Origin: Nemertoderma westbladi
Lineage: Eukaryota; Animalia; Xenacoelomorpha
Assembly: GCA_032718475.1 (NCBI GenBank)
Contig: JAUCBJ010008395.1
Coordinates: 1-64,000 of the forward strand
Length of the DNA: 64,000 nucleotides
Direction: 5' to 3'
Shown here: positions 8,712 through 47,267 of the stretch, piece after piece
Layout: the number at the start of each line of letters is the position of its first letter
How positions within the stretch are numbered: the stretch's first letter is position 1
Notes under the pieces: model-generated
Databases searched by the model: none
What the model was told of the DNA's origin: nothing
The model's input: the letters and a program-made list of their open reading frames with translations, nothing else
Program-made: the position numbers and the translations under genes

Positions 8712-9970
8712 TGTAAAAGCTTCTGTGGGATATAACTGGCCCTTTTGCTTCGCAATCCAGTTTCCCCCCTAGGCGCTGGAATACTCTAAAAGGCTCTATA
8801 ACTATATATATATTCCCCTCGCCCGCAAGGTACCGTTATAGGTGTTTTAACGGACATAAAAGTCATTCTGCTATATACGTGTTTTGGCGGACATGGTAAG
8901 GCAAAAAACCTGCAATGCACCAAATACCTTTCACAGCTTAGCCGTGATGATTCATATTACGACATCTAACAGCTGGTTGCTGACATTGAAACAGCCATTG
9001 GCCACATGGTTCTTTGTTTAGCTTAAGCCAATCAGAGCGATTTTTTCTGTCGACGTGTAGATATTCGGTCGATCATACTAGGAGTGTTCAGTCTTACTGT
9101 TTTTTGTGATACTGTTGTGTTGTTGCTATCTAGGCCAGGAACACCGGCTCTAGAGTCAACTCGTTCATACTTTAGAAGAAACATTAGTAGGCTTAAATTA
9201 TAGAGCGTATAACTGTTATCAGTGCAGTCCGACTCAATCGGCACATACATTGTCATATCATATCTTAACCTACCGTCTTAATGCTTTTTACTGTTGTCAT
9301 ATTTTGTATTAGTTGGTTGAATATTATTTGGAGAACATTTATAAAGAACCCAAATTTCCCAATTTTCTTGATACACTACAGGTTAGAGAGACGGGTTATA
9401 TATAGCGATTGCGACTTATATTATTGTGTATGTAGTGAATTTAATGCTATTTGATAAGCACTACATTGGTCCGTTGCTGTTCTCTCTATATATGATAAAA
9501 TTCATTGACGGTCGGCAAATTAGTGAGCAGTATTGTGTGTTACCGGTAGTGTGCATGATTGTGACTGATAACTAAGCATTTCCTAAAGAATGCGCCTCAT
9601 ACGTGAATCATAAGCCTTACCGACTTACCGTTGTGATTAGTATAAGTCATATCTCTGTTTACTTAGATAGAGCGCCACGTCCTAAAGGAACTGTTAATAT
9701 TTCCAGAAAGTGAATAATATTAGTCAGAAATTATTTATTAACGATCAATCGAATAATACAGTAAGCTTACACTGCAATAATAATCTAAGCCCTCAGAATC
9801 CAGCCCCCCGGGTATATCCAGCGGGTGAATGGACGCGCACTAGGCTGGCTTCTGCTAATGTTGTGTTTATTGGTATTAAATATTTGTCAACTTCTAAAGT
9901 ATATTTATAAACCAAAAGACATATAAATTTTGGCAGGTTAAACTGCTAAAGGTCTTCAAAAGCGCGTACA
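8712..9970 (+). repeat. 5' LTR of element A
   Basis: TGTAAAAGC...GCGCGTACA; direct repeat of 29505-30763. Confidence 0.97.
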
Positions 9971-9981
9971 ATAACAGTTAT
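9971..9981 (+). promoter_or_regulatory. Non-tRNA primer-binding site of element A (ATAACAGTTAT), complementary to LTR 9209-9219
   Basis: Abuts the LTR-terminal CA, has no TGG, and is the exact reverse complement of ATAACTGTTAT in the LTR. The function is inferred. Confidence 0.65.
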
Positions 9982-14714: not shown

Positions 14715-15162
14715 AATATCGCACGAAGCAATGTCAGTGTGAAGAGGCAAGTCGTTTCCAAGGTCTACCCAGAGCTTGGCTTAGCCGAGACACGAGGATC
14801 TGAACTTTGCATTCCTAATACTCTGCCTACCAATAATACTTGAATATAGTAGTGGCTTTATTGTACTTTAAGAAGTACGGACATTTCATCTTACTGTAGT
14901 CACGTATTTATAATATGATACGGACAGTAAGGAAAGAGAAAAATAATTATTTTCTCGCCGTCGCACTAAATATATATTATAAGTAATTACGTACGTAATA
15001 AACACTAATATATTGCACTAATCTACTAAATAATCACTAAAATAACATTCTACTAAATAAAATTGAATAAAAACGATTATAATAAAGTACATAATAAAGT
15101 TCTCATATAAAAATATAACAAAATAGATAAAATAATATAGTCATACACCCACTCCAGACGTA

Positions 15163-25506: not shown

Positions 25507-26791
25507 TGTACGCGCTTTTGAAGACCTTTAGCAGTTTAACCTGCCAAAATTTATATGTCTTTTGGTTTATAAATAGACTTTAGAAGATGACAAATATTTA
25601 ATACCAATAAACACAACATTAGCAGAAGCCAGCCTAGTGCGCGTCCATTCACCCGCTGGATATACCCGGGAGACTGGATTCTGAGGGCTTAGATTATTAT
25701 TGCAGTGTAAGCTTACTGTATTGTATTATTCGATTGATCGTTAATAAATTTCTGACTAATATTATTTACTTTCGGGAAAATATTAACAGTTCCTTTAGGA
25801 CGTGGCGCTCTATCTAGGTAAACAGAGATATGACTTATACTAATCACAACGGCAAGTCGGTAAGGCTTATGATTCACGTATGAGGCGCATTCTTTAGGAA
25901 ATGCTTAGTTATCAGTCACAATCATGCACACTACCGGTAACACACAATACTGCTCACTAATTTGCCGACCGTCAATGAATTTTATCATATATAAAGAAAA
26001 CAGCAACGGATTCATGTAGTGCTTATCAAATAGCATTAAATTCACTACAAACCACAATAATATAAGTCGCAATCGCTATATATAACCCGTCTCTCTAACC
26101 TGTAGTGTATCAAGAAAATTGGGAAATTTGGGTTCTTTATATATGTTCTCCAAATAATATTCAACCAAACAATAGTAAATAGCAGTATAATAATGTATAT
26201 TGAACCGATAATGTAAAACTGAATTGCGATCAGTTGTTATGATAAGATAAGTTGATTGTTATGCACTGATTGTTATGTTATGATAACAGTTATACGCTCT
26301 ATAATTTAAGCCTACTAATGTTTCTTCTAAAGTATGAAAACGAATTGACTCTAGAGCCGGTGTTCCTGGCCTAGATAGAAACAACACAACAGTATCACAA
26401 AAACAGTAAGACTGAACACTCCTAGTATCATCGGCCGAATATCTACACGTCGACAGAAAAAATCGCTCTGATTGGCTCAAACCAAACAAAGAACCGTGCG
26501 TCCAATGGCTGTTTCCATGCCAGCAACCAGCTGCTAGATGTCGCAATCTGAATCATCAAGGCCAAGCCGTGTAAAGGTATTTGGTGCATTGAGGGTTTTT
26601 TGCCTTACCATGTCCGCCAAAACACGTATATAGAAGAATGACTTTTATGTCCGTTAAAACACCTATAACGGTACCTTGCGGGCGAGGGGAATATATATAT
26701 AGTTAGAGAGCCTTTTAGAGTATTCCAGCGCCTGGGGGGAAACTGGATTGGGAAGCAAAAGGGCCAGTTATATCCCACAGAAGCTTTTACA
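25507..26791 (-). repeat. 5' LTR of nested copy A' (1285 bp, diverged variant)
   Basis: Reverse complement runs TGTAAAAGC..GCGCGTACA. Flanked by ATATT (26792-26796). PBS-like ATAACAGTTAT at 25506->25496 and its complement at 26293->26283. Confidence 0.95.
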
Positions 26792-27977
26792 ATATTGCTC
26801 TTCTACCTTATATTAAATAATACATATAGTAGCGTGATGTCCCTCTAACAGTAGCGTAAAACGCAAATAAATCTGTTAAACCTTTTGACCATCTGTAATT
26901 CTAGTCGATTAAGATATCGTGGCACACACCGATATACTTGAAAGACAAATTATAGAATCAGTGGTTAATGTCCCCAGACAGGTTCTGGAATAAATCGGTG
27001 CCCATCTTAAATATTAATTTAATATTTAGTAAAATCTGTAAAATTCAGATCCGTTAACAATTCTAGTCGATTAAGATATCGTAGCACTTACCGATACTCT
27101 TAAAAGGACAAAATTCCTAGAATCAAGGATCCAAGTCCCCAGACACGTTCTGGAATAAAATTGTGTCTATTTAATATTAAATAATAAAATTCACGGGAAT
27201 AAATTTAAATTCATATTTTTAAATGAATTTCATAAATTGTCATTTTGTACAATTTATAACATTCCCAAAATTCCATTAATTAATAGATCATGGGAGCGGA
27301 GATTCATCCTATTGAGTGTATTAGAGTGCGAGAATCTCCAACATATAGTCAATAGCCAATAAAATTAATAAAATCATGTATAAAGAGGATATTGACAATT
27401 AAAGAATTATTATTAAATAGCATTCCAGATCTGTATGCATGAGAATTACCCTAATTCTACAGCTAGCATTCCATAATGTCACCATAGCAACACCCACGCT
27501 AGAATTAGAAGCAAGTTAAGAGAACAATAGAAAGCTTGTCCCATTGCATAGCATAGAGAATACATAACACACTGTTAGTATCCAAGGATACACAGTAATA
27601 ACGTGACATTCTGGAATGCACTGACTAACGGACAAATGGCCTGTATGTGTACAATTGGTGACAGTTGTGTGGAATTTGTGCGTTTGTAGGTGAATGTTAC
27701 TGCTAAGGTGTGTTTACAGTAGCTAGTCGCAATTGTGAAAGTAGCCCAACTCTCCTATAGAAAGAACCTAAAGTGGATTCAAGCCTTTGTGACGGACAGT
27801 GGAGTGACTTGTGCCGGTTATCGTTGTCGTGCTGTTGCTACATGTTGGCGTAAACACCGCGACGACGGTACATCGGCGCTGAGAATCCCACTGTCTGGGG
27901 GCAAAGAGAGGTAGGCAGCGACGTCCGCTCGCCTAAACATAAACTCATTTCGATATTAACAAACTCAGATAGCAGAT

Positions 27978-29426
27978 ATGACGGAGTTGATAGAAGATGA
28001 TCTTGGTATCAGGGAGCGATATACTCTACCTTTACAAGCATTTGTGGATAGCTTGATACGCGGTGAAACCGATCCAACCATTACGGAGGACGATGGTCGT
28101 TATATCGAACCGCCGATGTCCCAAGAGCAACTTACGCGTGAATTGGACTATCGAAAATTCACCGCTCGCTATACGCATCGTAATGGTACGTATATGGACT
28201 TCCTAACTACCGGCCATCCTATCGATTTACATGATACGGACGATGTAGACACCGAAAGGGAAATGGTTCTATTTAAATATCATACCCAGCGGAGTCGTAA
28301 CGATAAACCGAGAATAGATCACGAAAATTATATTCGTAACAGACTGGGAAGACGAACCAATATGCCTAGAATCTGAGGAGATTCAGCCTATCGCGCCCGG
28401 AACAGCGACAACGATTACATCCTAGAATGGTATCAAGGTCCACAGTGTCTCACTGCGTACGATTATCGCCATGCCAACTATGTTTCTCGGCAACGTTGTC
28501 GGTTATGCGCATCGAGAGACCATGTTACGCCCATGGACACAAACGTCCGCTGTTCCTATTTCCACGAACGACCGGCGATGGAAATTTATTGCGCGTATTG
28601 CAGACTCAATAACTTGCATATTTTTGCGGTTTGCCCTCAATTTATGACTCAATGTCACCGTTGTCGGCTAAAGGGACACGCCAGTTTCGATTGCCCTTTT
28701 AATCACGATTTAGAAAGCGTAGATGAAATGATCACACTACGTTACATCAGAGCTTGGGAAGCGAACGCTGATTTACATTGTGATTCGCGCCATCGCTATT
28801 ATCCCGGACGCGCTTACGAAGGAGTTTATGCGTTCCATCCTTATCTATTCGCTTCGGTTGAACAGAAATCACGCATATCGAGTTACGAACTACTGAAGCG
28901 CGTCGGAGAATGTATCTCAACCAAGTTCGTACGCAAATTTCTCAGGAGTGTTAATCCTAGCGACCTTCATTCCTATAACTTAATCAATTATATCCGTCAG
29001 GATCCGGACTATGGAGACTTGTTTGTTAACTCACACCCCGAGTTACAGGAAGTATATCGACGGCCTTACGAATACCGAGCCCGCGAACGCGAGTTGGAAA
29101 GAACCATTAAACCCCGGAGGTTTCTAACTGCCTATGGTCCACCCACGGCCCTCGTTCAGACCACTCGTAAAGGACCCGTAAGAGCGGCTGTCTGGAAACG
29201 AGCTCTCAAAGCCGTTAGACCCCTCTCCCCTGACGTTGATGTCAATCAACCCGGTACTTCGACTGGCGGATACACCGACCATAATCCTACACCCTCTGAT
29301 GCAATCATATTGCACCCTTCACCCAGGAGTTATAGCCCTCCTTGTAAAGTGGCTCGCCCCAAGGAGAAAAGGACTCTGGCTAGCTTTAAGAAACTGCATA
29401 AACGCCGTCCGCGCAAGAAAGACTAA
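27978..29426 (+). CDS. Accessory ORF of element A (~482 codons, one in-frame TGA at 28374-28376): zinc-knuckle protein with a basic C-terminus
   Basis: ORFs 27978-28376 and 28533-29426 share a frame and the gap between them has no stop. Motifs CRLCASRDH..C, CAYCRLNNLHIFAVC, CHRCRLKGHASFDC; tail KKLHKRRPRKKD. Confidence 0.75.
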
Positions 29427-29504: not shown

Positions 29505-30763
29505 TGTAAAAGCTTCTGTGGGATATAACTGGCCCTTTTGCTTCGCAATCCAGTTTCCCCCCTAGGCGCTGGAATACTCTAAAAGGCTCTATAACTATAT
29601 ATATATTCCCCTCGCCCGCAAGGTACCGTTATAGGTGTTTTAACGGACATAAAAGTCATTCTGCTATATACGTGTTTTGGCGGACATGGTAAGGCAAAAA
29701 ACCTGCAATGCACCAAATACCTTTCACAGCTTAGCCGTGATGATTCATATTACGACATCTAACAGCTGGTTGCTGACATGGAAACAGCCATTGGCCACAT
29801 GGTTCTTTGTTTAGCTTAAGCCAATCAGAGCGATTTTTTCTGTCGACGTGTAGATATTCGGTCAATCATACTAGGAGTGTTCAGTCTTACTGTTTTTTGT
29901 GATACTGTTGTGTTGTTGCTATCTAGGCCAGGAACACCGGCTCTAGAGTCAACTCGTTCATACTTTAGAAGAAACATTAGTAGGCTTAAATTATAGAGCG
30001 TATAACTGTTATCAGTGCAGTCCGACTCAATCGGCACATACATTGTCATATCATATCTTAACCTACCGTCTTAATGCTTTTTACTGTTGTCATATTTTGT
30101 ATTAGTTGGTTGAATATTATTTGGAGAACATTTATAAAGAACCCAAATTTCCCAATTTTCTTGATACACTACAGGTTAGAGAGACGGGTTATATATAGCG
30201 ATTGCGACTTATATTATTGTGTATGTAGTGAATTTAATGCTATTTGATAAGCACTACATTGGTCCGTTGCTGTTCTCTCTATATATGATAAAATTCATTG
30301 ACGGTCGGCAAATTAGTGAGCAGTATTGTGTGTTACCGGTAGTGTGCATGATTGTGACTGATAACTAAGCATTTCCTAAAGAATGCGCCTCATACGTGAA
30401 TCATAAGCCTTACCGACTTACCGTTGTGATTAGTATAAGTCATATCTCTGTTTACTTAGATAGAGCGCCACGTCCTAAAGGAACTGTTAATATTTCCAGA
30501 AAGTGAATAATATTAGTCAGAAATTATTTATTAACGATCAATCGAATAATACAGTAAGCTTACACTGCAATAATAATCTAAGCCCTCAGAATCCAGCCCC
30601 CCGGGTATATCCAGCGGGTGAATGGACGCGCACTAGGCTGGCTTCTGCTAATGTTGTGTTTATTGGTATTAAATATTTGTCAACTTCTAAAGTATATTTA
30701 TAAACCAAAAGACATATAAATTTTGGCAGGTTAAACTGCTAAAGGTCTTCAAAAGCGCGTACA
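29505..30763 (+). repeat. 3' LTR of element A
   Basis: Direct repeat of 8712-9970, preceded by PPT GGGAGCGG. Confidence 0.97.
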
Positions 30764-31293
30764 CATGTATTTTAAAGACCTCAGGGGGAACACCATCTAC
30801 TCCACTGGCACGATTGGTCTTAATGCTCTTTGCAGCAGCCTTCACTTCTGCAAAGGAGATATCACCAATGGGAATATCTGGGAGTTCAGACTCAGACACT
30901 TTTACTTCTATAAAGTTATCAGGCAATACCCTGTCATTATTGAGGAGCTGTTCAAAGTGGGCCTTCCAACCATTGAGGCGATCGGCTGGTGATTCAGCCT
31001 TAACCTTGGTGGTTGGTTGGCTTTTCGACCAGCAAGCAAGTTGATCGATCTCCATGCCTGGGATGATTGCCTGCTGTCGTCAGCATCATTGATGGCATCA
31101 ACCTGTTGGTTTATTAGCTCCTGTAAATTAACAGAGTACTGCCTGTTCAGGGACCTAGATGCAGCCTTAACTACATTCTTGGCCGCTGTAGTCTGTTTGA
31201 GTCGGGACTCTTTCTGCGCCTTGTAGAGGTCATTTCGGCACTTCTGAATTTTGTTGTCAGTCCAGGGGGCCCGTTTCCTGTTTCGAGGGTATA
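30764..31293 (-). mobile_element. RTE-like LINE, middle segment between the two BEL insertions
   Basis: WKAHFEQLLN..ISFAEVKAAAKSIKTNRASGVDGVPPEVFK (pre-RT linker); joins in frame to the 7259-8711 segment. Confidence 0.92.
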
Positions 31294-32251
31294 TGTTAAA
31301 CTGGGATGGTAATAATGGGCCTCGCCCTGATTACTTTGTTTATTATCTGATAATAATTGACTGCCAATCTCTGTAGATAGTAGCTCCCACATTTCCTACT
31401 TTCTATTGGTACAGTACAAGGTGCTAATAGTTATGATCAGCTGTTCTGGCCCTACCATTGAATGCCTTGTAACGATAGTTAAGGAATTATTGCGGTCAGG
31501 TGGTACCTCAGCTTTCATGTAATAGTGTTGCTTTCATGTAGTCAGGTTGTACCTCTACATTGATAATACCGTACTAAACATATTTGAACTTATTTATATT
31601 TAGATATATTTCATATTTATATTCAGTCAGTGGCTACCTAGTACTCGCTGTGCTGTACGAGGCGACCCAGTCTTGCCTGGTGCTTTTCCTCAACCGAGCA
31701 GTTTACCGTCCGCGTGAGTTATCCGGTCGCGGTCACGGTCGGTGCGTCTGGATGGTTGGTGGCCCCCCTTGGCCCCAACGGCAACCACCGATAGCTCAAC
31801 AAACTCTATTTCATTCGGCCTTGCCTATTCGCCTGACATAACGGCATAGGGAGCCATACTTTCCTTTAACGTGTTATCTTTCACGATACAGATAACCCAC
31901 CTATTGGGTTTCTGGGATCATTATATTATGATATAAAGTACACCCTCAATCGTACTGATTGTCGGGCCTGTTTGTGTTGGTTATTATTGTGAACGGTGCT
32001 ACACAGCGGAGGCCAGTTAAACAAACAAAGTGAGTTTCAAACCACATTAATAGGTTTACCCTGCTTGGTGTCTTGTAGCTCTACCGTAAAGCCATAAGCT
32101 GCCCCCTTATGACCCTTTTGTGTAAGATAGTTTAAAATAAGTGTGCGAATGTCCCCTATCCACCCCGGAATTCGACCTGTCAGTCACGTCGTACCGAGAA
32201 AGTCGGGTGTCAGGTTCTTTATTAACTGTCTAACAGTCACCGACTTTGACA
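31294..32251 (+). repeat. 5' LTR of element B
   Basis: TGTTAAACT...CTTTGACA; direct repeat of 41496-42453. Confidence 0.97.
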
Positions 32252-32263
32252 TTAAAGGAAAGT
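32252..32263 (+). promoter_or_regulatory. Non-tRNA primer-binding site of element B (TTAAAGGAAAGT), complementary to LTR 31858-31869
   Basis: Abuts the LTR-terminal CA, has no TGG, and is the exact reverse complement of ACTTTCCTTTAA in the LTR. Confidence 0.7.
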
Positions 32264-32876
32264 TAGATTTTTCAATTAATACCAGTTACCTGTAATTGAT
32301 ATTAATTGGAGAAAGTGCGATCCTCATTCGCCACCTTTCTGTGTGGTCTGATTTTACTTACAGTACCTTTAAAGTGAGATATATATTAAAAAAAAATATA
32401 TAAGGGTTAATTTTTTACTGTTGCTGGTAATATCTAAGTTTATATATATACTGTACTGTTGTATATATGGTGTGTTTACATAGAGTAGATATACCGGTAG
32501 TATACATAATTAAATTGACTTGGGATTCCAATGATATTTGACTGTGGAATGTCTGCATACTGGCAACCTTAATAAAATTACACACCTTTGATTAAATTGA
32601 TAATTGGTTTAATTTCGTAAATTTAAATATATTGAAATTGGCCTAAAACGAATAGTTTTGTTTCCGCAGCGATTTGTTGCAGATATTGTTTACTATTTCG
32701 ACTTACTACTAACCGCTAACCGCTGTATAGTTTCTCATTTAAATTTAGGCTATAATGTAAAAGGTTGACCTGAAAAAATTGGTTATTAAAAAGATAAAGG
32801 CTAATTTATTTTATTTTACAGGCCTACATAATCAATTATTAATTTATATAAATAACAATTCCCACAAGTATTAAAT

Positions 32877-35800
32877 ATGAGTGATTATAGTAAAACTAGT
32901 CAAAGGTCAACCCAAAGTCAGCAAGTCCTAAGTCCACAGCGAACCAAACCAAAGGTTATACAGGATAAAGTACAAGGTGGCCTTGGGGCACCTCCCACAA
33001 GGAACGCAGCTCATGTTGGGGCTGCGGCCGTAGCCAATCAAAACTTACCTGAGATTTTGGTTAGCCTAGCTGCACTTGGTCTCGACGCTGCCTCTCTGGA
33101 AACAGAGGGTTGGCGCAGGGCACTTGGTGGGGTCATTGGCTACCGCAACCGCCGAGTCAATGAAATTATTGCCTTGCAAAGGGCATGGACTGATGAGACT
33201 CCTATTGATCTCCTACGGGGTTATGGCATCGAGATGGAGGAGATATTATCAAAAAGACGGCATCTCAGTGAAACCTTGCTTCGGTATGCTAAACTTACAA
33301 ACCGTGAGCCCATATGCTTATATGTACAAAAGGCAGATGCCGAATTTACTGTCATAATCAATAAATTTTTTAATGCTATGCCGGGAGGTCTATACCCACT
33401 TAAAGCAGCCAAGTCTTTGGGAGAGGTGGTGCCACCAGTAGTGGATGAAATCACTGGTAAAGTTGCTGATATGACAATTTGCTCACCAACCAATATATCA
33501 GTTGTACCTTATGTTACACCAGTAAGTCGTTCTGTTGATGTAGCTACTGAATTAGCAGCTGATAACACACTCTGTCCAAACGACAGTGTTTCCCAAATAC
33601 CCGTAGGTTCTCACTGCAGCAACTCCAGTTCTACCGTTCGAGCCTATCTGGAGGCTGAGCAGAAAAGGGATGAAGCACACAGGGAGAGAGTTAGGCGCCA
33701 TGCTGTAATGGAGCAGGAGGAAGCTCTCCTCAAAGCCGAGGCTGTTAGGCAACGCGCTATTAAAGAGCAAGAAGAACAAATCTCTCGCGTTGATACTGCT
33801 ATAATCAAAGCACAGGCCAAGCGGCGTGCCCAAGAAAAAATGGATGAAGCTGAAATGGAGATTGAGCAGCGTAAATCTCGTAGAATCATTGAGTATGGTT
33901 CAGGTGGAAGTGCGGGATCAGGTCTTTCACGGGGAACATTTCCGCTCCGAACCCCAGATCGACATCCACATGTAACATCTACACTCACTTCAACACAAAT
34001 CCCAGCGACTATGCCAGTGACATATAATAATTTGTCGCCACCTTTAGTGTCGGCTGTTAAGGCAGCCAATCCATCCATAACACCATTAAATCCAAAGGCA
34101 GTGCCTTTCCTGCCATTAAAACCATTACCAACTGGTCAATATCGGGTTCGAGAACCAAACCCAAACCATAGGCGAAGTATGCCTTCCTCTGCTGCCATAC
34201 CCATTCATCAAGATCCTGAAGCAGAGCGACAACCATTTGCCTCAGGTACTCGACCACCAATTGCGAGTAATCTTCCACAGGTAACCAAGAAATTTCCAGC
34301 TCAGGACATTCGGTATCTACCAGGAACTGCTTTAGGGTCAAATCCACATCGAGAATTCATGAACACTGACAATGGTCCTCCCATCCCACGATCACAAAAT
34401 CCAGTGTGGTATCCACATAATGCAAGAATGTCTGGGCCACCATATGGCTCGCAGCGACATCAATATCCAGAGGTATCCCGATATAATGATGTTGATCCAA
34501 TGGGATATCCAGAAATAGGGACTCAAAATCAAAATACCCAAAATATTGGACAATCACAATCTGGGCTTAACACTAGTCTAGAACAAGCCAGTATGCGAAT
34601 TTTGTCGCATACAGAAATCAATCGATTTCTACCATACACTAAATTTGTCACCTTCAAAGGTGACCCAGAACAATGGCCAGCCTTCTTACAGTACTTTACC
34701 ACAACTGTTCTTAGTAAAGGCTTGTCCTCTCAGGAAAATCTTAGCTTTTTGCTATCTGCAACTGCTGGGCCGCCCCACCTTGCAGTCACCCAACATATTG
34801 GAATCCCTGGGGGTTTTGAGAAGGCCTGGGCAAAACTTAAAAAACGCTATGGCAATCCGCGATGGCTTGCCAAAGAGTTATATCGCCAAGTTATTGAGTA
34901 TCCTGCTCTTAAAGGCCAGCAGGATATTACTCCATTTTTTGATACATTGGAGCGTATTGTAGCGCAATTAACAGCAATTGATCAAATAAATGAATTGGAT
35001 AACGCCCCAATTATAAGTACTATGGTCCAGAAACTAACTGGAGCATGTCAAGGTCGGTGGTTTAAGAATGTGAAACGTCTTGTATACCCCGAATCTGATC
35101 GTATTATGCCTCGTTCTGAGAATCTAAATGATTTTATGAAGTTTCTTGAATGGGAAGTTGATTTGGCTGAGTGCAGTGGTGCCCCAACAGCTGCTGCTAT
35201 AGATAAGGCAGCACGGAATCAACCTAGAACCGAATTACGGCCTTCTTATCGATGGCATCCAAAAAAGGCAGTTGAAGCAGCCTTTGCAGCCTCAGCAGCT
35301 GTAACTCCAGAAATTTATAATAAGTCAGCCGATGAGGAATCAGAAGAAACAACCTGTGCAGTAACAGACCGCAAATTGCCTTTACCAAGTAAATCAAAAT
35401 CCTCTAAACCAAAACTGTCATGTGAAAAACCCAAGTCAGTACCACCCGAATGCATCCGATGTAAAAATGGTAATCACCATATCTACCGCTGCGAAACATT
35501 TCACAAAGATGATGTTAAACAGCGCCGAGACTTTATATCAAAGTCTCGACTTTGTTATAATTGTCTTCGTTCAGGTCACACCACCACAGAGTGCCCTTCA
35601 GCACGAAATTGCAGAGCATGTGATAATCGCCATCATACCTTGATATGTCGAGACCCTAATGCTTCAACTGCTGTAGCTGTACTTACTGCAGAGTTGATTA
35701 CTGGATCAGATTCATCCTTTGTTGAAGATAGTCCAGGAGAGGTAGAAGCAGAGGCTGAGGCCTATATAGTTGAAATGGTAGACTCTCCATCCATTGCTAA

Positions 35801-38800
35801 ATCTTTCTTTATAGGAAAACGCAGTGTTAAAGAATATCCTATTCTTCCAGTTCGTGTCATGGGTCATGGCATTGAGCATCACTGCTTTGCTTTGCTAGAT
35901 ACTGGCAGTACTGCAACATTTTTAGATGAGTCTGTCTTTGACAAGATCTTCCCAGAATCAACTAGTCTTAGATTGACATTGCAAGGTATTTCAGGGGAAG
36001 AAGTCATGGGTACAAGAAAGGCATTTGGCTCCATTAGTTCTCTGGAGGGAAGCTGTACTGCTCGCCTCCCTCGTGTGCGAATGGTTCGCCTGAAGTTTGG
36101 TCAAGCTTGTGGTCAAGCATATGATTGGGCTTCAGACCCTTTTCCTGCAGAAGTTGGCTTGAAAGCACCAACTCTGCCTGATCCATCAGTTGTAATGATC
36201 ATTGGTGGTAATTGCTCAGAAATGCGTATTATATTAGAACAGCGCCCATCTAATCCTACTGCATATGGATGTCTAGCTACCCGAAGTCTACTGGGTTGGT
36301 ACTTTACAGGCCCCTCTCGACGAACTTGTATAGAACGCCAATGGCCAGTTGATGACATTGAATCAACAATGGCTGCTGATCGTGGTGATGCCTCTGCTGC
36401 ACTATGGGCACAGGAGGTTCCCCCCGGTGAGACCTCTGAGCTGCTTCTTCTTCAAGAAGAAGTATACCAAGAAGATGATGATACTGATGTACTATCTGAA
36501 ACTTCCTTTACCAACCTCATGGAAGAGTCTCTAAACATAATAAATACTGGTCTAGATCTTCTCTGTGATGAAGATAAATATGTACTTCAAGCTTTGGATC
36601 ATAGAGTTTCTGCCTGGATTGATGGTCTGAAATTGCAGCCCCATGATTTAGAGAAAGCTAGCTCTGTAGAAGAGCTCCGTGCCGCTGAAATACAAAGGAC
36701 TACACGACGTCTTCTCCCAGATGGCCATTATGAAATAGGCCTTCTCTGGCGAAAGCCTGAACCACGCCTCATTAATAATCGTCCACTTGCCTTAAGACGT
36801 CTAAATTCCCTTAAGAAACGTCTAATTGACAACCCTGAAGTAAATGTAATGTACCGCGCTGAAATGGACAAACTCTTAGCCAACGGATGGGCTATGCGTA
36901 TTCCAGATCACTTAATAGCACCAACTCCTCGAACTTATTACTTGCCTCATCATTTCGTTATAAATCCTAATAAGCCAGGTAAAGTTCGTGTTGTAAATGA
37001 TTGTGCTGCTGTATATCGTGGAATTTCTTTAAACAGTGAGATAATGAAAGGACCAAACTACCTTAGAAATATTGTAGGAATTCTTCTTCGATTTCGAATC
37101 TCAGCTATTGCTTACATTGCAGACATTGAAGCTATGTTCATGCAGGTCAGAGTTACTCCGGTAGACAGAGATTCCCTGAGGTATTTATGGTGGGAATCTG
37201 AAGACATGTCAGGGGATCCCATAGAATATCAAATGTGTTCTCAAGCATTTGGTATAATATCTTCTCCATCAAATGCTGGTAGCAGTGTTGTTGGTTGCGT
37301 TGCAGATAACCAAGACCTCACCGACTCACTGGGAGAGCCGTTTTACTCACCTGATGCTGCAAGTACATTACTTCGCGACATTTATATGGATGATATAATG
37401 AGTGCACAGCCAACAGTTGAACAGGCTATTATTGTTGCCCACCAGGTTCGTGACACTCTTGCACTAGGTGGTTTCAATCTTTTGAAGTTTGCAAGTAATA
37501 GTTCTAAGTTCTTAAAGTCTTTCAGTCCTGAGCTTCGCCAGGATGCTACTGTAGAACTTGGTATTGACCCACTTCCTGTAACGAAAGCTCTAGGCATTCT
37601 TTGGGATCCTACAAAAGACAACCTGTTCTTTAAGGTTAAGTCCTTTACCGATGGACCTCGGACAAAGAAGTCTTGCCTCTCTATACTAGCAACGACATTT
37701 GATCCTCTAGGATTGATTGCACCAGTCATTATGGCTGGGAAAATTCTTTTAAAGGATATCTGGGCTCATGGCTTAGATTGGGATGATCCTCTTCCTGGTC
37801 ACCTCTTAGCACAATGGTATAAATGGGAAACAGCCTTACACTATTTAGACACTATGCTCCTGCCACGTCAGTATTTGCCTGATCTTCAGCCTACCTCATC
37901 TGTGGCATTCCATATCTTCAGTGATGCAAGCAGTTTAGGCATGGGAGCGGTTGCATATCTTTGTTGGGATGATGAACAGAATATTGGTACTGCATTGTTA
38001 GGCAGCAAAACTCATATCATGCCTACGAAAGGACTAACCATACCCAGAGCAGAATTGCAAGCTGCAGTATATGCCGTTGAATTAGCTAGAACTCTACATA
38101 AAGAACTCATATGGCCTGAGGCCAAAATTACATTCTGGACAGATGCTTCTTTAGTTCTGCAGTACTTACATAACGAGACTACTCAGTTTGTAGTTTATGT
38201 TGCAAACCGAGTTCAAGCTATTCTCTCATTCACCACTGTGGCTCAGTGGAGACATGTACCAGGTGATCAAAACCATGCCGATTCCGCATCGCGTGGTTTA
38301 ATTTGTGACAAATTCTTAGACTGTAAACTTTGGTTCGATGGGCCAGAATTCTTACAACAAGGACCAGAGTACTGGCCTCCTCCCCTATCTGACACTACAC
38401 TCGGGAAGGGAGCGGAACTCAAGGTGAAGCCTCTGATATTGGCTGTTCCAGACTTCGATTCTGCATTACAAATTAAGGTTTCAAGCCTTAGTAATCTGCT
38501 GCGGATTGTAGTACCTTCAACTGGTAATGAAACCTTTCCTGATACTACAAAAAATGTTAGTCCCCTATTACTTGATCTTATACAGCATTATCGATCCTTT
38601 AATAGAGCTGCAAGGGCTATTACATGGATTAAACGTTTTATTCATTGGTATTTTGGTGGAAAACCAAAGTTAACACCCAATAAATTACCAAATATGGTTC
38701 CTCTGAAAGAACCAAATGCTGAAGACAATTCCATCCTTGAAGATACAAACAAGTGTAAAAAGCACAGAGTTTCAGAAGTGCTACTCACTTTACGTTCCTC

Positions 38801-40280
38801 GACTGTAAATTCAGCTATACCATCTTTGAAATCAAACTCAACCAAGACAAAAATCGTTATACCTTTAAATACTCATCAGGCACTCTTATGCCTCACACCG
38901 CTTGAGATAGATAGCTCTCAACGGCAATTACTACGCTTTATTCAGGTATACACTGTGCCTGAAAACTACCGACAGCTACAAACATTACAACGGTCTTATA
39001 TTCCCGATAGATTCCATGCTGTAATGCACAATGGCCTAATGCGTGTTGGAAGCCGAATTGCCGGTGCATATTCTAGTTACGAGCAACAATTTCCTATCAT
39101 TCTGTCCAATGCCACAGTTATGAGAGGCCTTATTTACGATTCACATCTTCGAAATCATCATGCAGGTCAAGAATATATTCTTGCAGATCTGCGTCAACAT
39201 TACTACTTAATCCGGCCATGGAGATCTCTCCGGTACATTTTAGATCAATGCCTACCCTGTAAACGGCTATTTGCACGTCCTTGTGCGCAGCTTCAGGCCC
39301 CACTGCCACCCGAACGTCTTCAAATAGGTAAGCCAGCCTTCACATCCACTGGTGTGGATATGTTTGGCCCCTTTAGTGTACGCAGGGGCTACCGTATATA
39401 TAAACGTTGGGCGATAATATTTACATGCTTTACAACTAGAGCAGTTTACCTTGATGTTGTCGATCATCCTGACATGCAAAGCTTTATGCTCTGCCTTCGG
39501 CGTTTTGTAGCATCGACAGGGGGTGCAACCAAATACCGTTCAGACTGTGGCTCTAACTTTATTGCTGCTGCCAGAGAACTGCAGCAGTTCATTGAGGACT
39601 GGAATGAACCTGTACTTAAACAGAAGTTGGTTGAATTCCAGTTGGTCTATCAACCATGGCACTTTAACCCACCCTATGCTCCATGGTATGGTGGTGCCTA
39701 TGAGCGGTTAATTCATTCAATCAAAGCCGCTTTGACAAAGATAATGCCATCACCACGAGATTTTTCGGATGAGATGTTCCGTACGCTCCTTTTAGAGATT
39801 GCAGATTCTATTAACCACCGGCCATTAATCCGAATATCCAATGATCCGGATGCCATAGAGGCAATAACCCCTGCTCATTTCATAAATCCCCGTCCATCGT
39901 CATTACAGGTATATGAACGCCATGACGATGGTGACACTCAAGCATACTACCTCCAAGCTTTATATAAGGCAGTCGCCTTACATGTAGATGTCTTTTGGGG
40001 TATTTGGAAGGATCACTACCTTCCCACAATTCAAACAAGAACAAAATGGTTTTCAAAAGCTCCAAACCTAGCTTTAAATGATCTCGTTATTGTTGATGAG
40101 CCCAATGTCCCTCGTCATAAATGGCTGCTTGCACTAGTACGGGAAATTCACAAAGGTGATGATGGTTTGGTTCGCTCAGTAACTTTACGGCTTTCAAATG
40201 GTTCAACATTACAACGTCCAATTCAACGTCTGGTATTGCTTGAGATGGCTGCAGGCCACCAAGGTAATTACGGACAATAA
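32877..40280 (+). CDS. BEL/Pao Gag-Pol polyprotein, 2467 aa, uninterrupted
   Basis: FKGDPEQWPAF (BEL Gag), three Zn knuckles, LLDTGS protease, DIYMDD RT, FSDAS RNase H, HLRNHH..CLPC, DMFGP/SDCGSNF/YERL integrase, DDGLVRSV C-terminus. Confidence 0.97.
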   Translation: MSDYSKTSQRSTQSQQVLSPQRTKPKVIQDKVQGGLGAPPTRNAAHVGAAAVANQNLPEILVSLAALGLDAASLETEGWRRALGGVIGYRNRRVNEIIALQRAWTDETPIDLLRGYGIEMEEILSKRRHLSETLLRYAKLTNREPICLYVQKADAEFTVIINKFFNAMPGGLYPLKAAKSLGEVVPPVVDEITGKVADMTICSPTNISVVPYVTPVSRSVDVATELAADNTLCPNDSVSQIPVGSHCSNSSSTVRAYLEAEQKRDEAHRERVRRHAVMEQEEALLKAEAVRQRAIKEQEEQISRVDTAIIKAQAKRRAQEKMDEAEMEIEQRKSRRIIEYGSGGSAGSGLSRGTFPLRTPDRHPHVTSTLTSTQIPATMPVTYNNLSPPLVSAVKAANPSITPLNPKAVPFLPLKPLPTGQYRVREPNPNHRRSMPSSAAIPIHQDPEAERQPFASGTRPPIASNLPQVTKKFPAQDIRYLPGTALGSNPHREFMNTDNGPPIPRSQNPVWYPHNARMSGPPYGSQRHQYPEVSRYNDVDPMGYPEIGTQNQNTQNIGQSQSGLNTSLEQASMRILSHTEINRFLPYTKFVTFKGDPEQWPAFLQYFTTTVLSKGLSSQENLSFLLSATAGPPHLAVTQHIGIPGGFEKAWAKLKKRYGNPRWLAKELYRQVIEYPALKGQQDITPFFDTLERIVAQLTAIDQINELDNAPIISTMVQKLTGACQGRWFKNVKRLVYPESDRIMPRSENLNDFMKFLEWEVDLAECSGAPTAAAIDKAARNQPRTELRPSYRWHPKKAVEAAFAASAAVTPEIYNKSADEESEETTCAVTDRKLPLPSKSKSSKPKLSCEKPKSVPPECIRCKNGNHHIYRCETFHKDDVKQRRDFISKSRLCYNCLRSGHTTTECPSARNCRACDNRHHTLICRDPNASTAVAVLTAELITGSDSSFVEDSPGEVEAEAEAYIVEMVDSPSIAKSFFIGKRSVKEYPILPVRVMGHGIEHHCFALLDTGSTATFLDESVFDKIFPESTSLRLTLQGISGEEVMGTRKAFGSISSLEGSCTARLPRVRMVRLKFGQACGQAYDWASDPFPAEVGLKAPTLPDPSVVMIIGGNCSEMRIILEQRPSNPTAYGCLATRSLLGWYFTGPSRRTCIERQWPVDDIESTMAADRGDASAALWAQEVPPGETSELLLLQEEVYQEDDDTDVLSETSFTNLMEESLNIINTGLDLLCDEDKYVLQALDHRVSAWIDGLKLQPHDLEKASSVEELRAAEIQRTTRRLLPDGHYEIGLLWRKPEPRLINNRPLALRRLNSLKKRLIDNPEVNVMYRAEMDKLLANGWAMRIPDHLIAPTPRTYYLPHHFVINPNKPGKVRVVNDCAAVYRGISLNSEIMKGPNYLRNIVGILLRFRISAIAYIADIEAMFMQVRVTPVDRDSLRYLWWESEDMSGDPIEYQMCSQAFGIISSPSNAGSSVVGCVADNQDLTDSLGEPFYSPDAASTLLRDIYMDDIMSAQPTVEQAIIVAHQVRDTLALGGFNLLKFASNSSKFLKSFSPELRQDATVELGIDPLPVTKALGILWDPTKDNLFFKVKSFTDGPRTKKSCLSILATTFDPLGLIAPVIMAGKILLKDIWAHGLDWDDPLPGHLLAQWYKWETALHYLDTMLLPRQYLPDLQPTSSVAFHIFSDASSLGMGAVAYLCWDDEQNIGTALLGSKTHIMPTKGLTIPRAELQAAVYAVELARTLHKELIWPEAKITFWTDASLVLQYLHNETTQFVVYVANRVQAILSFTTVAQWRHVPGDQNHADSASRGLICDKFLDCKLWFDGPEFLQQGPEYWPPPLSDTTLGKGAELKVKPLILAVPDFDSALQIKVSSLSNLLRIVVPSTGNETFPDTTKNVSPLLLDLIQHYRSFNRAARAITWIKRFIHWYFGGKPKLTPNKLPNMVPLKEPNAEDNSILEDTNKCKKHRVSEVLLTLRSSTVNSAIPSLKSNSTKTKIVIPLNTHQALLCLTPLEIDSSQRQLLRFIQVYTVPENYRQLQTLQRSYIPDRFHAVMHNGLMRVGSRIAGAYSSYEQQFPIILSNATVMRGLIYDSHLRNHHAGQEYILADLRQHYYLIRPWRSLRYILDQCLPCKRLFARPCAQLQAPLPPERLQIGKPAFTSTGVDMFGPFSVRRGYRIYKRWAIIFTCFTTRAVYLDVVDHPDMQSFMLCLRRFVASTGGATKYRSDCGSNFIAAARELQQFIEDWNEPVLKQKLVEFQLVYQPWHFNPPYAPWYGGAYERLIHSIKAALTKIMPSPRDFSDEMFRTLLLEIADSINHRPLIRISNDPDAIEAITPAHFINPRPSSLQVYERHDDGDTQAYYLQALYKAVALHVDVFWGIWKDHYLPTIQTRTKWFSKAPNLALNDLVIVDEPNVPRHKWLLALVREIHKGDDGLVRSVTLRLSNGSTLQRPIQRLVLLEMAAGHQGNYGQ

Positions 40281-41495
40281 GCAAAATCTGACAAAGGCTT
40301 CTGCTGTGAAAACAATGCCAGTGGGCCTTAAACTGTCTTCTACATAGCTTTACATTACAAGTATGTATGATTTATGTTAATTATGTGTTAGTGGGGGTAT
40401 GTGTGTGTTTGTACTACGTATATATGGGTATGCAAATAATTACCTAGACTTAAAAATTACCCCTTAGTGAATTTTGGGAGCGGAATCGAAATTATTACTC
40501 GACTGATGACAGACCGAGTTTTACTTCTGCCATTTCTCTGTTTGTAAAGAAACACGGGGCATGCATTAAAGAAAAAAAAAAAAAAAATGTCACATTGCAA
40601 TGTATAAGGGCTTGAATATGTTCTTATATTTGCTTTGGAACTTGCCATCTGTAATTAAAACTTAGTATTAGTAAAAGACACCAAGCAATTTTGAACCTCA
40701 TAGGTAATCCAGCTCACTTTGTCATAACGGCATAAGCTTATTAGTACTGAACACAATATGGCTGATGCTTCAGGCTTCGATTAATCTGAGAGATCCGATT
40801 CAGTGTTGGCGATGTTGGGGAGAAATGATGCGAGGCTACCCTCTGATATACAATAGCTTCAAGTCTCACATTCTCGTGCGTCTCATTTAGATATGTTTTG
40901 GATCACTATCTAACACGAGTTTCCATCTGTATCTGCGCCATTGTGGTCTGATTTCTCCAAGAAATCTGGATATGAAAACCGAAGAAACATTCTGAGGATC
41001 TCACTGCTGATGATGTTGTGGATCCACCACTGCTTACATCACCTCCACTTCTCAACCCCTGGGATCCGTTGCTTGGACGATTCTGGATCTACTACTTTGC
41101 ATGCAGGATGGTAGTCAGTGTGTTTGCCCGATCGATATTCGTACCAATACACAGGTTGCTCAGGAAGCATTGCCTTCAAAACCGAATCAGTACTCCAATT
41201 ATTCATATATATATATATTAAATACACCGTACTGTGTTCTGATTGTGCAATTTGTAAAATTTATGCTAATCTTATTCAACACTTGAAATAGAATAGGGCT
41301 TTTTCCGCTGTGTAGCTCCTTTTGCCCTTTCTAGGAGATATAATTTTTTGAGATATAAATTTTGTGCTTTGTAGATATTTTTAGTTTTGAGTTATTTCGC
41401 TATACCACTGAAGTCCACTTACTCCACTGAAGTCCAGTGCGAGTCCATCTTCCCTGACTATGGGATGCTACCTCGCGTCGTATCCCAGGGAGCGG

Positions 41496-42453
41496 TGTTA
41501 AACTGGGATGGTAATAATGGGCCTCGCCCTGATTACTTTGTTTATTATCTGATAATAATTGACTGCCAATCTCTGTAGATAGTAGCTCCCACATTTCCTA
41601 CTTTCTATTGGTACAGTACAAGGTGCTAATAGTTATGATCAGCTGTTCTGGCCCTACCATTGAATGCCTTGTAACGATAGTTAAGGAATTATTGCGGTCA
41701 GGTGGTACCTCAGCTTTCATGTAATAGTGTTGCTTTCATGTAGTCAGGTTGTACCTCTACATTGATAATACCGTACTAAACATATTTGAACTTATTTATA
41801 TTTAGATATATTTCATATTTATATTCAGTCAGTGGCTACCTAGTACTCGCTGTGCTGTACGAGGCGACCCAGTCTTGCCTGGTGCTTTTCCTCAACCGAG
41901 CAGTTTACCGTCCGCGTGAGTTATCCGGTCGCGGTCACGGTCGGTGCGTCTGGATGGTTGGTGGCCCCCCTTGGCCCCAACGGCAACCACCGATAGCTCA
42001 ACAAACTCTATTTCATTCGGCCTTGCCTATTCGCCTGACATAACGGCATAGGGAGCCATACTTTCCTTTAACGTGTTATCTTTCACGATACAGATAACCC
42101 ACCTATTGGGTTTCTGGGATCATTATATTATGATATAAAGTACACCCTCAATCGTACTGATTGTCGGGCCTGTTTGTGTTGGTTATTATTGTGAACGGTG
42201 CTACACAGCGGAGGCCAGTTAAACAAACAAAGTGAGTTTCAAACCACATTAATAGGTTTACCCTGCTTGGTGTCTTGTAGCTCTACCGTAAAGCCATAAG
42301 CTGCCCCCTTATGACCCTTTTGTGTAAGATAGTTTAAAATAAGTGTGCGAATGTCCCCTATCCACCCCGTAATTCGACCTGTCAGTCACGTCGTACCGAG
42401 AAAGTCGGGTGTCAGGTTCTTTATTAACTGTCTAACAGTCACCGACTTTGACA
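41496..42453 (+). repeat. 3' LTR of element B
   Basis: Direct repeat of 31294-32251. Confidence 0.97.
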
Positions 42454-43110
42454 GTATACAGGAACTGTTTCTACAGCTGCTAACTTAACTGCCTCTGTGA
42501 AGGCAGTATAGCCCTCACAGTGATCTGCCGCCTCAGAGGGAAGAACCTCATACCTGTTGCTCAGCTGTAGTGTGAAGCTGGACTCACACCTGGCTGTTGC
42601 AACAGAGAGGACAAGTCATGCCGCGGCAAGGCAGATTTCGTTGTTCTGCTAGCACGCCTGAATTTTGTTGTCAGTCCAGGGGGCCCGTTTCCTGTTTCGA
42701 GGGTATACAGGAACTGTTTCTGCAGCTGCTAACTTAACTGCCTCTGTGAAGGCAGTATAGCCCTCACTGTGATCTACCGCCTCAGAGGGAAGAACCTCAT
42801 ACCTGTTGCTCAGCTGTAGTGTGAAGCTGGATCTCACACTTGGCTATTGCAACAGAGAGGACCAGTCATGCCGCGGCAAGGCAGATTTCGTTGTTCTGCT
42901 AGCACGCAGACTAAGTCTTACCTTGGCCACAATAAGGCGGTGATCACTGGAGAAGGGTCGTAGTGTAAATGCATTACAGTCTTGTATAGAGCTCCTGTAT
43001 TTGCTACGAAACAGGATATGGTCTATCTGAGACTTGTGACCACTGGGTCCACTATGAGTCCATAGCTTTCCAGTTCGCTTCTTGAACTGGGTTCCAGCCG
43101 AAAACAATCC
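42454..43110 (-). mobile_element. RTE-like LINE, 5' segment (C-terminal half of the AP endonuclease; 5'-truncated; includes a ~250-bp tandem duplication)
   Basis: WTHSGPSGHKSQIDHIL..SSDHRLIVAKVRL endonuclease motifs. 42658-42907 duplicates 31244-31293 + 42459-42657. Confidence 0.88.
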
Positions 43111-43860: not shown

Positions 43861-44111
43861 TGAAATACAATAAAATATAATCTAGTCCGTACCCTAATGA
43901 AATTGCAAGTGTTATTATTATATTATATTATTATTTGAGTACCAAAGATAAATTACATTAATTATTCCTCCCCAGGACCAAAACGAAATATACAGTATTT
44001 GGTAGGACCATGGGTTATTATCTTGTTGAGATTTTTACTCCAGAGATTTTTACATAATCAATCAGGATAACTATATTACAACTTATCCTATAAAGAAATA
44101 AACTCCTCATA

Positions 44112-47100
44112 ATGTATACTGGAGTCTTTGTTATCGCAATCGCTCTGATAAACAATTCGGTTGGCGAAATCTACATTAACAACTTCTGTACGAATCCCTC
44201 CGCTACTGCGTTCTCTACAACCTCCCCCTCTACCGCTTTATGTAACATTAATTGCGAACAAAGGGACCAGTGTACGGCTTTCAGTTACAACGAAGGGGTC
44301 TGTAAGCTTTACTACGATAGCTGTCTTGAAAGAATGGACAGCTGGTATGTTGATACATTAGAAAGAAGATGGATTAGTACAAAAAAAGGTGAGATGCGTT
44401 CATTATTTATCAGAAATTATAAAGTAAAAAATATTCTAGATCCAGTCGCATTGCCAGTTCACACAAATAAATTACAATTCTGTATATTGTATATCACGTT
44501 TGTTTCCATTCCAGTTGAATGGGTTGTAAAGTTTCGTCCTCCTTGCCGCAAACGTTTCCTAGGCGAAGTGAATCTAACGACTCAAACAGACATCAGCTCT
44601 TACAATGAATGTATGGAGGAATGCGGTGACAATCATCTATGCAGAGCGGTTGTTTGGGCCTGGAATGCAGTGAATTTCTGTGGATTCGAAACTGGCGGAG
44701 ATTCAGACACCAAACTTAGTACTATCGTCGACACCTACGGTGACGATGTCGCCTACTTTGATAAGATCGATGACATTCCATTTCTCTGTAAGTTTGAATA
44801 AATGTGCCTACAGTTCAATGACAGCAGATCTTTCTTTACTGTATAACAGGTAATATTCATCTACTGTATTCTAATGACCTCAATACCGGTACTTCTCTAT
44901 ATTTTAGGCCCAGATGAGGATCCATGCGATAATCTTTGTCCAGAAGGATACAAATGTGGAGAAATAAGGATAATATACAGGGGAGAACCGCTTTGTAATT
45001 CCTGTGCCAGCAGCTACGTACCACTCAATGACAATGCGAATGAAATTATATGCGGAGGTGAGGAGCTATAATATACTGTATAATATAATATACTATGTAA
45101 TATACTGTATAATATAATATACTATATAATATACTGTATCTATCTATTCGTGCTGGCAAAAATAGTGGAGTAAATCATATTTTTATTTTTATTCTTTATT
45201 TTATTGATACATTATGGCCTACTGTAGCTAGGGTCTAGTTGCGAATAAGTACAGAATCTCTCATTATATTTGAGCTCCTGAGCTCCATATTACAATTTTT
45301 ATCATGTAGGCCTACAACTACAGTAGGGGATAGTCTCTGAAAGCTGCAGTAGTGGAGGCGTTTTTATAACCAAAATAATAAACTAAACTATATTTCATAT
45401 GCGACCAATTTGTGATGTAGTTTATTATTTTATTTGAGACCAACTTGCGCCACTATCTGACATACACAATATCGTGGACCCTACAAAATGAAAACAGTCT
45501 TGCGAACTATCTTTCGATAGCTATGCTATCCGGGTAGTGGAGGGTAGGAGTGGACGCTACTCCTATTCCAAGTTTTGCTCCCAGTGATTCAACTTGTCCT
45601 CATTTTAGCGACACCATTGGATAAAAGAGGCTCGAACTGAGGCTCGAGAGCTGGGCTCGAACCTACAACCAATAGATTGTAAGCTCGGCGTCCAACCAAC
45701 TGAGCTACGGTACACCGCCTTTGCGGACCCTATAAATTACCTCTTAAATTCCACTAATTCCAGGAAACATTCCATACAGTAGGCCTACAATCGCGATAGA
45801 TTTATGAATCTTCGATTTCTCTTCGATTCGATTCCGACCCAAGAATACCACCGAATATTCTCCAACTTTCGGTAGTCGAACACGTACAGTACGTCTCCCT
45901 GTATGTCCGCGCCAACGTCTTCCTGTACGTACATTCTTGTTAACGTTAAAAGTATACGGCGCCCTCGCCATCATCATAGACAATGCAGTTCACGGAACAC
46001 CTTGCTTCTGGAACAAAATCATAACAGTATCATAACAAATATACAGTAGCTACAGTTTTTCTTTATCTATTTCCATTTTCTTTACACATCTACTCGATAC
46101 ATGTTAGCTTTATTTAGTATAAGCGACGATACAGTAAAATAAATTAAAGTGGTCGGTCGATTTACGTGTGTAACTCGAAACACCTGATACACCCCGAAGG
46201 CTCCTCTCACTTGGCTGTTACCTATAAGGCTGGGAGGGCGCCACGCTAACTCTCAATTCAACCCTATCTTTACTCCCACTAAAGAAGCCAGGTTCCTATT
46301 GTAACGAGGGTTTGCCTAAACACTAGTTTGTTGCTTAAGGACACTATCAGTTTGGAATTTATACAGCCTTTTGTCTTATTTTTGAACCTTATAGGCCTAC
46401 AGTAGCTAAACGCTATTGTGAAAGAGGTTCAGGCGCTGTATCCACTCGGACACTGCGACAGTGATAAATATTCGTAGTATGGCAATGATACAGGTTTGTA
46501 TTCTATAGACATTAATAGCTGTGTCCCCAAATACAGTATTACTTCCCATTATGGCATATCCTCATTTAAATTATTCAAATATTGTTTTTTCAGCGGATTC
46601 AAATTCTCCACAAACAAAGCTGGTTGCTTATTGGCCATTGAGTTTCAGATACAAAGGTAATGAAAAATTAGGACAACTCGATGGTAGTATCCATGGCAAC
46701 CTGGAATATAACAAAGGGCCGGGAGACGTCGATGGTCAGTCAGCGGATTTCGGTAGTGGGTATGTTTCCATCACCCATGGCAACGAGTTGCAAACAGAAA
46801 CTTTCACTATGATTGCTTTTATAAAGCAGACGACCAGTTCAGTTGGACCAATATTGGAATTTGGGAGTAGAGTGAGTAGTGGAACACATTTCTGGCTTTG
46901 GCCCGGTACAACAACACTTTACTACTGTTGCCAAGCAGGTAATTTCATCTTGGTCGACTCAATCTCTATAGACCAGTGGTATATGGTAGCTGTGGCATGG
47001 AGTGCAACTGCCAATAAGAGGTATCTGTACAGCCGCAGTATAGATAACATGGAACACAAGATAGTCGAGCAGGGGAATCTAATCGTAGATACAACGAGAC

Positions 47101-47267
47101 CGGATAAAGACTCGCTGAATCTTCTAATTGGGAAACGGGAAACAACGACGGAAAATTTTCCAGGTTTGATAGCTCATGTCCGATACTATCGAAGTTTTTT
47201 GACAGTCCGACAGTTGGACCAAGTCCTCGATGAAGTATTGCAACTTGAGAAACAAGAAGAAGATTAA
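44112..47267 (+). CDS. Secreted protein: signal peptide, two PAN/apple-like modules, Cys-rich module, LamG/concanavalin-A-like domain; exons 44112-44388, 44515-44787, 44908-45057, 46594-47267 (~457 aa)
   Basis: All introns are GT-AG phase 1. Motifs CNINCEQRDQCTAFSYNEGVCKLY, CMEECGDNHLCRAVVW..C, LVAYWPL..FTMIAFIK..QWYMVAVAW..LLIG..FPGLIAHVRYYRSFLT. The exon 3 to exon 4 join is inferred. Confidence 0.75.
45500..45720 (-). mobile_element. tRNA-derived SINE (same family as 49062-49330)
   Basis: TCTTTCGATAGCT..GGGTAGGxGTGGACGCTA..TCGAACCTACAACCAATAGATTG..TGAGCTAC shared with the 49-kb copy. Confidence 0.7.
46190..46345 (-). mobile_element. SINE-like fragment
   Basis: Shares ACCCGAAGGCTCCTCT with the 49062 SINE. 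Confidence 0.4.

Follow-up and report, generated by a model that had tools for sequence, protein, structure and literature searches.

Element B and its genomic surroundings

The window (i.e., the entire stretch of 64,000 nucleotides analyzed here, from a contig of Nemertoderma westbladi) contains an intact BEL/Pao long terminal repeat (LTR) retrotransposon on the + strand at 31294-42453, termed element B, which was delimited by self-comparison of the window and direct inspection. Its main parts are as follows.

31294..32251, + strand: 5' LTR of element B, TG...CA, 958 nt
41496..42453, + strand: 3' LTR of element B, 958 nt, 957/958 identical to the 5' LTR (mismatch at 32168)
31289..31293 (left) and 42454-42458 (right), + strand: target duplication GTATA, 5 bp
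41488..41495, + strand: polypurine-tract-like GGGAGCGG, flush with the 3' LTR; an identical octamer precedes the 3' LTR of element A
32877..40280, + strand: single gag-pol open reading frame (ORF), 2467 aa, open over 32877-40277

The polyprotein carries the Pfam domains DUF1759, Peptidase_A17, and DUF5641, which are shared with 1,448 homologues, and its motifs follow the Pao-type order gag-PR-RT-RH-IN, with Cys-His boxes at aa 859, 893, and 912 and LLDTG at aa 1006. Within this ORF, we take the functional motifs to be the three Cys-His boxes, the protease LLDTG, the reverse transcriptase (RT) YMDD, four RNase H acidic motifs, and an integrase D-D-E. The domains, motif order, Cys-His boxes, and LTR pair with a short target duplication place element B in BEL/Pao. 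A triple Cys-His box combined with an LLDxG protease motif marks this group in the part of the survey consulted (PMC554778), and B has both; the spacing of its third box differs from the Suzu spacing given there. An earlier note on this DNA described the ORF of B as intact and its LTRs as near-identical, which agrees with a frame open over its whole length and a single LTR mismatch. Extra copies of the octamer GGGAGCGG occur in the 3' noncoding regions of B (40476-40483) and A (27292-27299), located 1.0 kb and 2.2 kb before the respective 3' LTRs, and possibly represent second plus-strand starts.

Element B lies in a very abundant host repeat (31203-31293 and 42454-42907), for which the summed contig depth was 5e5 to 8e5, compared with 100 to 350 inside B. 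An uninterrupted copy of its target site is present approximately 250 nt downstream. To the right of B, there are PAN and laminin-G-like host coding pieces on the + strand (44094-44801 and 46509-47267). In a contig from run X4, position 31977 is followed by 783 other letters and then by the LTR start (31294-31977), possibly representing a short nonautonomous relative of B.

The primer-binding position and its match in the LTR

The two segments at the center of this study are the following.

32252..32263, + strand: primer-binding position (PBS) of element B, TTAAAGGAAAGT, flush with the LTR end, directly after CA
31858..31869, + strand: predicted self-primer 3' segment of element B, 12 nt, exact complement of 32252-32263; the next base is C

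The earlier note had described this 12-nt exact complement as flush with the LTR-terminal CA and followed by C, and both the coordinates and the geometry proved correct. TTAAAGGAAAGT is present once in the window, and the primer 12-mer recurs in the 3' LTR (42060-42071). The complementarity is real and far beyond chance: among 20,000 dinucleotide-shuffled versions of the LTR, one had a 12/12 match at offset 0, and 12 had one when offsets of 0-4 were allowed. Scanning the 9,232 positions inside B for 12-mers with a complement in the LTR gave five, the primer-binding position among them.

The TGG of a tRNA site is absent at the LTR end of B, where the first TGG occurs at +56. Neither B nor A has the signature of tRNA-primed elements (i.e., a PBS starting with TGG within a few nucleotides of the LTR end), and both have the Tf1-type signature, a PBS-LTR complementarity of at least 10 nt (12 nt in B and 11 nt in A). 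The primer of B is of the uninterrupted form, with no strict GT-AG junction match and no AG within it. In DNA contigs from four runs (at most three samples, one of which is possibly the source), none of the listed differences fell in the B motifs; the B family varies little anywhere, so this lack of variation says little.

The earlier note also placed the primer segment in an initiator-like context. A YYANWYY motif does span 31854-31860, but it is one of 15 in the B LTR, and it was rejected as a means of locating the start site at 31858.

Element A and its family

The window includes a second element of the sister lineage of B, element A, with the following features.

8712..9970, + strand: outer 5' LTR of element A; 3' LTR at 29505-30763; target duplication CATGT
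9209..9219, + strand: predicted self-primer segment of element A, 11 nt
9971..9981, + strand: primer-binding position of element A, 11 nt, flush with the LTR end
25507..26791, - strand: second A-family 5' LTR, with primer segment and PBS as in the outer A LTR

The 11-mer match of A at offset 0 was reproduced in 10 of 8,000 shuffles, and the duplex can be extended by six pairs via 9200-9205. No TGG occurs within 60 nt after the LTR of A, and no strict GT-AG junction match was found; its primer is uninterrupted, like that of B. However, the A 11-mer is an interrupted palindrome whose two sites differ only at the center base. Because of this near-palindromic motif, A lends weaker support than the earlier note implied, and its argument that A and B together amount to natural covariation is weak by itself. 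A and B are 49% identical to each other, and the identity of either to anything else sampled is at most 42-44%. Since A and B have no close sampled relative, the relatives described below support the group and not B directly; among the sequences sampled, there was no close relative of B with compensatory changes. Around the primer, the A-family LTR pair shows 100% identity over 24 columns, compared with 94% upstream, 45% in the adjoining 3' block, and 96% farther on. Among the difference rows listed (40 of 190), the sequence is replaced from 9220/9221 onward in contigs from three runs.

A separate RVT_1 reverse-transcriptase frame (7259-8785, - strand) adjoins the left end of A. Within A (8712-30763), a second A-family copy sits in its 3' region in the opposite orientation, flanked by the target duplication AATAT (14715-14719 and 26792-26796), and the segment between the two shared internal regions appears inverted. 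A 349-aa Cys/His-rich open frame with no Pfam match lies in the 3' region, immediately before the 3' LTR of A (28377-29426, + strand). A partial A LTR (13938-14714) overlaps gag by 1 nt where the two are joined. Its start corresponds to 9198/9199, where the extended duplex has its edge, 10-11 nt upstream of the primer segment. This copy is a chimera, with a first block 100% like the outer LTR followed by sequence 99.7% like the inner LTR. This partial LTR may be misjumped strong-stop DNA marking an RNA 5' end near 9200, or it may reflect a later deletion or an assembly error.

Predicted splice-junction primers in relatives

A metagenome scan yielded 79 BEL/Pao loci, of which 59 entered a blind scan and 20, being short or internal fragments, were omitted by eye; no relatives were found in a scan of viral contigs. 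Most loci with a repeat-defined LTR end lack a TGG start. In these relatives, short contiguous complements of the PBS start directly after pyrimidine-tract-AG sites, and the remainder ends at an upstream GT donor. The primer of most relatives thus appears to be split by a predicted LTR intron, a feature invisible to the earlier reader.

Eleven loci with repeat-defined ends were compared with shuffles of their own LTRs. In six, the PBS pairs with the element's own GT-AG junction over 10-15 nt (each P = 0.003, the floor of 300 shuffles), and the best match across elements was 7 nt. The other five comprise one locus with a contiguous match (11 nt), two with TGG sites and no self-match, and two with no match. 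One of the unmatched loci, L010, matched after the blind scan corrected its LTR end. Two further loci with uncertain LTR ends (L009 and L064), excluded from this test, gave no match. In the blind scan, junction matches of at least 11 nt (11-15 nt) were detected in 20 of 59 loci and of at least 10 nt in 22, compared with 0 for reversed sequences, 0 for complemented sequences, and 0-2 for 20 shuffles. The 20 matching loci represent 18 distinct ones, as two pairs are identical in RT. No spliced match of at least 10 nt was found in 37 of the 59 loci, many of which lack a full LTR. A contiguous-match version of the blind scan was non-discriminating (37 of 3,531 candidate ends with at least 10 nt) and was set aside; a contiguous match is credible solely for L016, whose end is repeat-defined, and perhaps for L019.

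The predicted introns of 19 tabulated families are 71-426 nt long, with the donor GTAAGT in 12, and 0-4 nt separate the LTR end from the start of the duplex. A C follows the duplex in both A and B, as it does in 13 of the 19 spliced relatives. The letters of the PBS differ from family to family, which a fixed host RNA cannot explain. For 16 loci, the junction and the LTR end could be placed on one copy; in 15 of them, A[AT]TAAA occurs between the two, 0-101 nt after the junction, versus 2 of 12 equal-length leader controls. A poly(A) signal after the partner site places the primer in the R region. The proposal in the earlier note of tRNA-independent self-priming in BEL/Pao is therefore strongly supported by comparison with many distant relatives, which keep the pairing at one position with different sequences and have a poly(A) signal after the partner. 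It is likely, judging from these sequence patterns, that BEL/Pao elements with own-LTR pairing begin copying with a piece of their own RNA.

The distance from the LTR end to the duplex correlates with that from the purine tract to the LTR start (rho = 0.62, n = 14; with kin collapsed, 0.73, n = 10), as expected if the end of the duplex is the end of the cDNA; in A and B, both distances are 0. These hand-read values were picked after the data had been seen, with three ambiguous loci omitted, and the correlation counts as modest support.

A and B were placed in a midpoint-rooted FastTree phylogeny of RT-RNase H (96 sequences) together with 22 database proteins and 72 of the 79 loci (7 shorter than 325 aa were dropped). 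The two elements are sisters (support, 1.0), with a support of 0.28 for their placement in this tree, which has no named BEL/Pao references. Junction-type loci are scattered over the tree. Ordinary TGG-type sites were observed in three relatives (L003:56-80, L011:18-42, and L055:406-425), and these loci share one weakly supported part of the tree with the junction-type L073. The two types of priming may thus occur side by side in near lineages.

Proposed priming mechanism and its alternatives

Two further features of the B LTR bear on where its RNA would start and end.

31932..31937, + strand: TATAAA followed by a GT-rich stretch; likely a variant poly(A) signal, alternatively a TATA box
31623..31628, + strand: TCAGTC, an initiator-like motif after an AT-rich tract; candidate alternative upstream start site

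B probably uses Tf1-like self-priming, in which RNase H cuts a duplex between the R region and the PBS. Transcription would start upstream of 31858, and within the particle the LTR segment 31858-31869 would fold onto 32252-32263. By analogy with Tf1, RNase H would then cut just 3' of the duplex, at or near 31869/31870, freeing a 3'-OH. The resulting strong-stop DNA would span only 31870-32251; after its jump to the matching part of the 3' LTR, U3 and the primer sequence would be copied anew from there, leaving both cDNA ends flush with TG and CA. Counting against this model, predicted folding varies with the start that is assumed. In B, the mean duplex probability was 0.93 for an RNA starting at 31858, 0.70-0.78 for starts at 31800 or 31625, and 0.00-0.05 for four other assumed starts; a local U5/PBS hairpin competes with the primer duplex. 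For A, the predicted duplex probability was 0 for a start at 9090. Contrary to the earlier note, the model does not require the primer to form the very 5' end of the RNA. At gathering thresholds, Rfam gave no match in the window.

In junction-type relatives, the primer would arise only once the 5' LTR copy is spliced, and the 3' LTR copy would usually have to stay unspliced for the intron to persist. Copying of a spliced 3' LTR could yield the uninterrupted state of A, B, and L016, although this direction is hypothetical. We give about even weight to a wider version of this model, namely, that in a broad group of BEL/Pao elements from aquatic animals, tRNA priming has been replaced by a self-primer, mostly made by the spliceosomal removal of a 5' LTR intron. 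Under this version, splicing would license replication and keep the unspliced 3' LTR copy off the PBS, and A and B would represent an intron-less state reached via a copied spliced 3' LTR.

An unlikely alternative is that transcription starts downstream of the motif, from a TATA box at 31932. The motif would then belong to U3 and be present only in the 3' LTR part of the RNA, and the primer would come from that copy, from a copackaged RNA, or from the 3' end of the RNA itself; a TATA box here would leave the 5' copy untranscribed and exclude 5' self-priming. The TATAAA at 31932 is the sole TATAWA in the B LTR, which has neither AATAAA nor ATTAAA, and A has a similar motif approximately 120 nt after its primer. 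Furthermore, wild-type Tf2 RNA mostly begins downstream of the self-primer, according to the portion of the source consulted (PMC5341516). On the other hand, the TATAAA of B, 63 nt past the primer, occupies the slot filled by the poly(A) hexamer in nearly all placeable relatives and precedes a GT-rich tract, and on these grounds we read it as a poly(A) signal. The TATA-like motifs found in 5 of the 19 relatives are upstream of the donor. Priming from the RNA 3' end is opposed by the absence of a poly(A) signal before the primer end in both A and B.

It is also improbable that the duplex is real but regulatory, acting in PBS masking, packaging, dimerization, or translation control, with a host RNA (e.g., a half-tRNA or another small RNA) as the primer. 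The near-palindromic site of A would suit such a role, given that dimerization signals are often near-palindromic. Half-tRNA primers without a TGG site are known in Ty1/copia lineages, as described in the consulted part of PMC6317226, and for B alone a host half-tRNA is possible. In the relatives, however, each of approximately 20 different PBS sequences finds its match in its own LTR alone, such that every one would need a separate host primer. The duplex also occupies the exact place of a primer, with an offset that tracks the opposite end of the element. Chance complementarity in AT-rich DNA is scarcely credible, for the A- and T-rich 12-mer of B and the four other internal positions with an LTR complement are outweighed by its rarity at a single position fixed beforehand, by the geometry shared with A, and by the frequency of junction matches in the relatives relative to the nulls.

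Comparison with known systems

The closest mechanistic parallel to the self-priming proposed for B is the Tf1/sushi group, including Tf1 and Tf2 of Schizosaccharomyces pombe and Tj1 of S. japonicus, which, like B, have no tRNA site. As described in the consulted portions of three reports (PMC7175516, PMC4600332, and PMC5341516), an 11-nt segment of the R region pairs with the PBS in these elements, and RNase H cleavage makes the primer. Tf1/sushi elements belong to Ty3/gypsy, whereas B is a BEL/Pao element with no chromodomain match in Pfam and is thus outside the Tf1/sushi lineage. A splice-built primer, such as that predicted for the junction-type relatives, is not described in the parts of the Tf1/sushi literature covered here.

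Self-priming has been reported for Tf1/sushi, Tcn1, and TAR/Houba/Osr-1, according to the sections consulted (PMC6317226 and PMC3601003). For Tcn1 and TAR, it was predicted from an LTR complement of at least 10 nt located 0-5 nt after the 5' LTR, as stated in the consulted part of PMC6317226. B has such a complement, but the Tcn1 chromoviruses and the plant TAR elements (Houba as well as Osr-1; Ty1/copia) belong to other superfamilies and hosts. Because this approach seeks contiguous matches, it would miss the junction-type relatives.

Among tRNA-primed BEL/Pao elements (Belpaoviridae), the LTR of Achilles is directly followed by an 18-nt tRNA-Tyr site, as given in the consulted part of PMC4580426. 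Such elements share with B a single ORF, a triple Cys-His box, an LLDxG protease motif, TG...CA LTRs, and the Pao peptidase, DUF1759, and DUF5641 domains; in contrast, the TGG/tRNA site is absent from A and B. Two BEL/Pao surveys (PMC554778 and PMC3118150) make no mention of primer binding, PBS, tRNA, or self-priming, and PMC13524379 makes no mention of self-priming. In the portions of the literature covered, self-priming is restricted to groups of Ty3/gypsy and Ty1/copia, with no case in BEL/Pao and no splice-built primer, although Repbase reports, subscription papers, and supplements may mention such cases. It is quite likely that B, which is outside the Tf1/sushi lineage, works like Tf1.

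Implications for BEL/Pao elements

Self-priming is documented in Ty3/gypsy for elements of the Tf1/sushi type, and two plant lineages are predicted to use it. If it also operates in BEL/Pao, this would point either to one more origin of tRNA-free priming, probably an independent one, or to its being ancient, and it would explain the BEL/Pao elements without a recognizable PBS. It would also improve the annotation of LTR elements, which currently seeks only tRNA sites or contiguous matches. As an intact element with an uninterrupted primer and a homogeneous family, B provides a simple reference case for testing the spliced families. A primer made by splicing, if it exists in those families, would directly link the onset of reverse transcription to RNA processing by the host.
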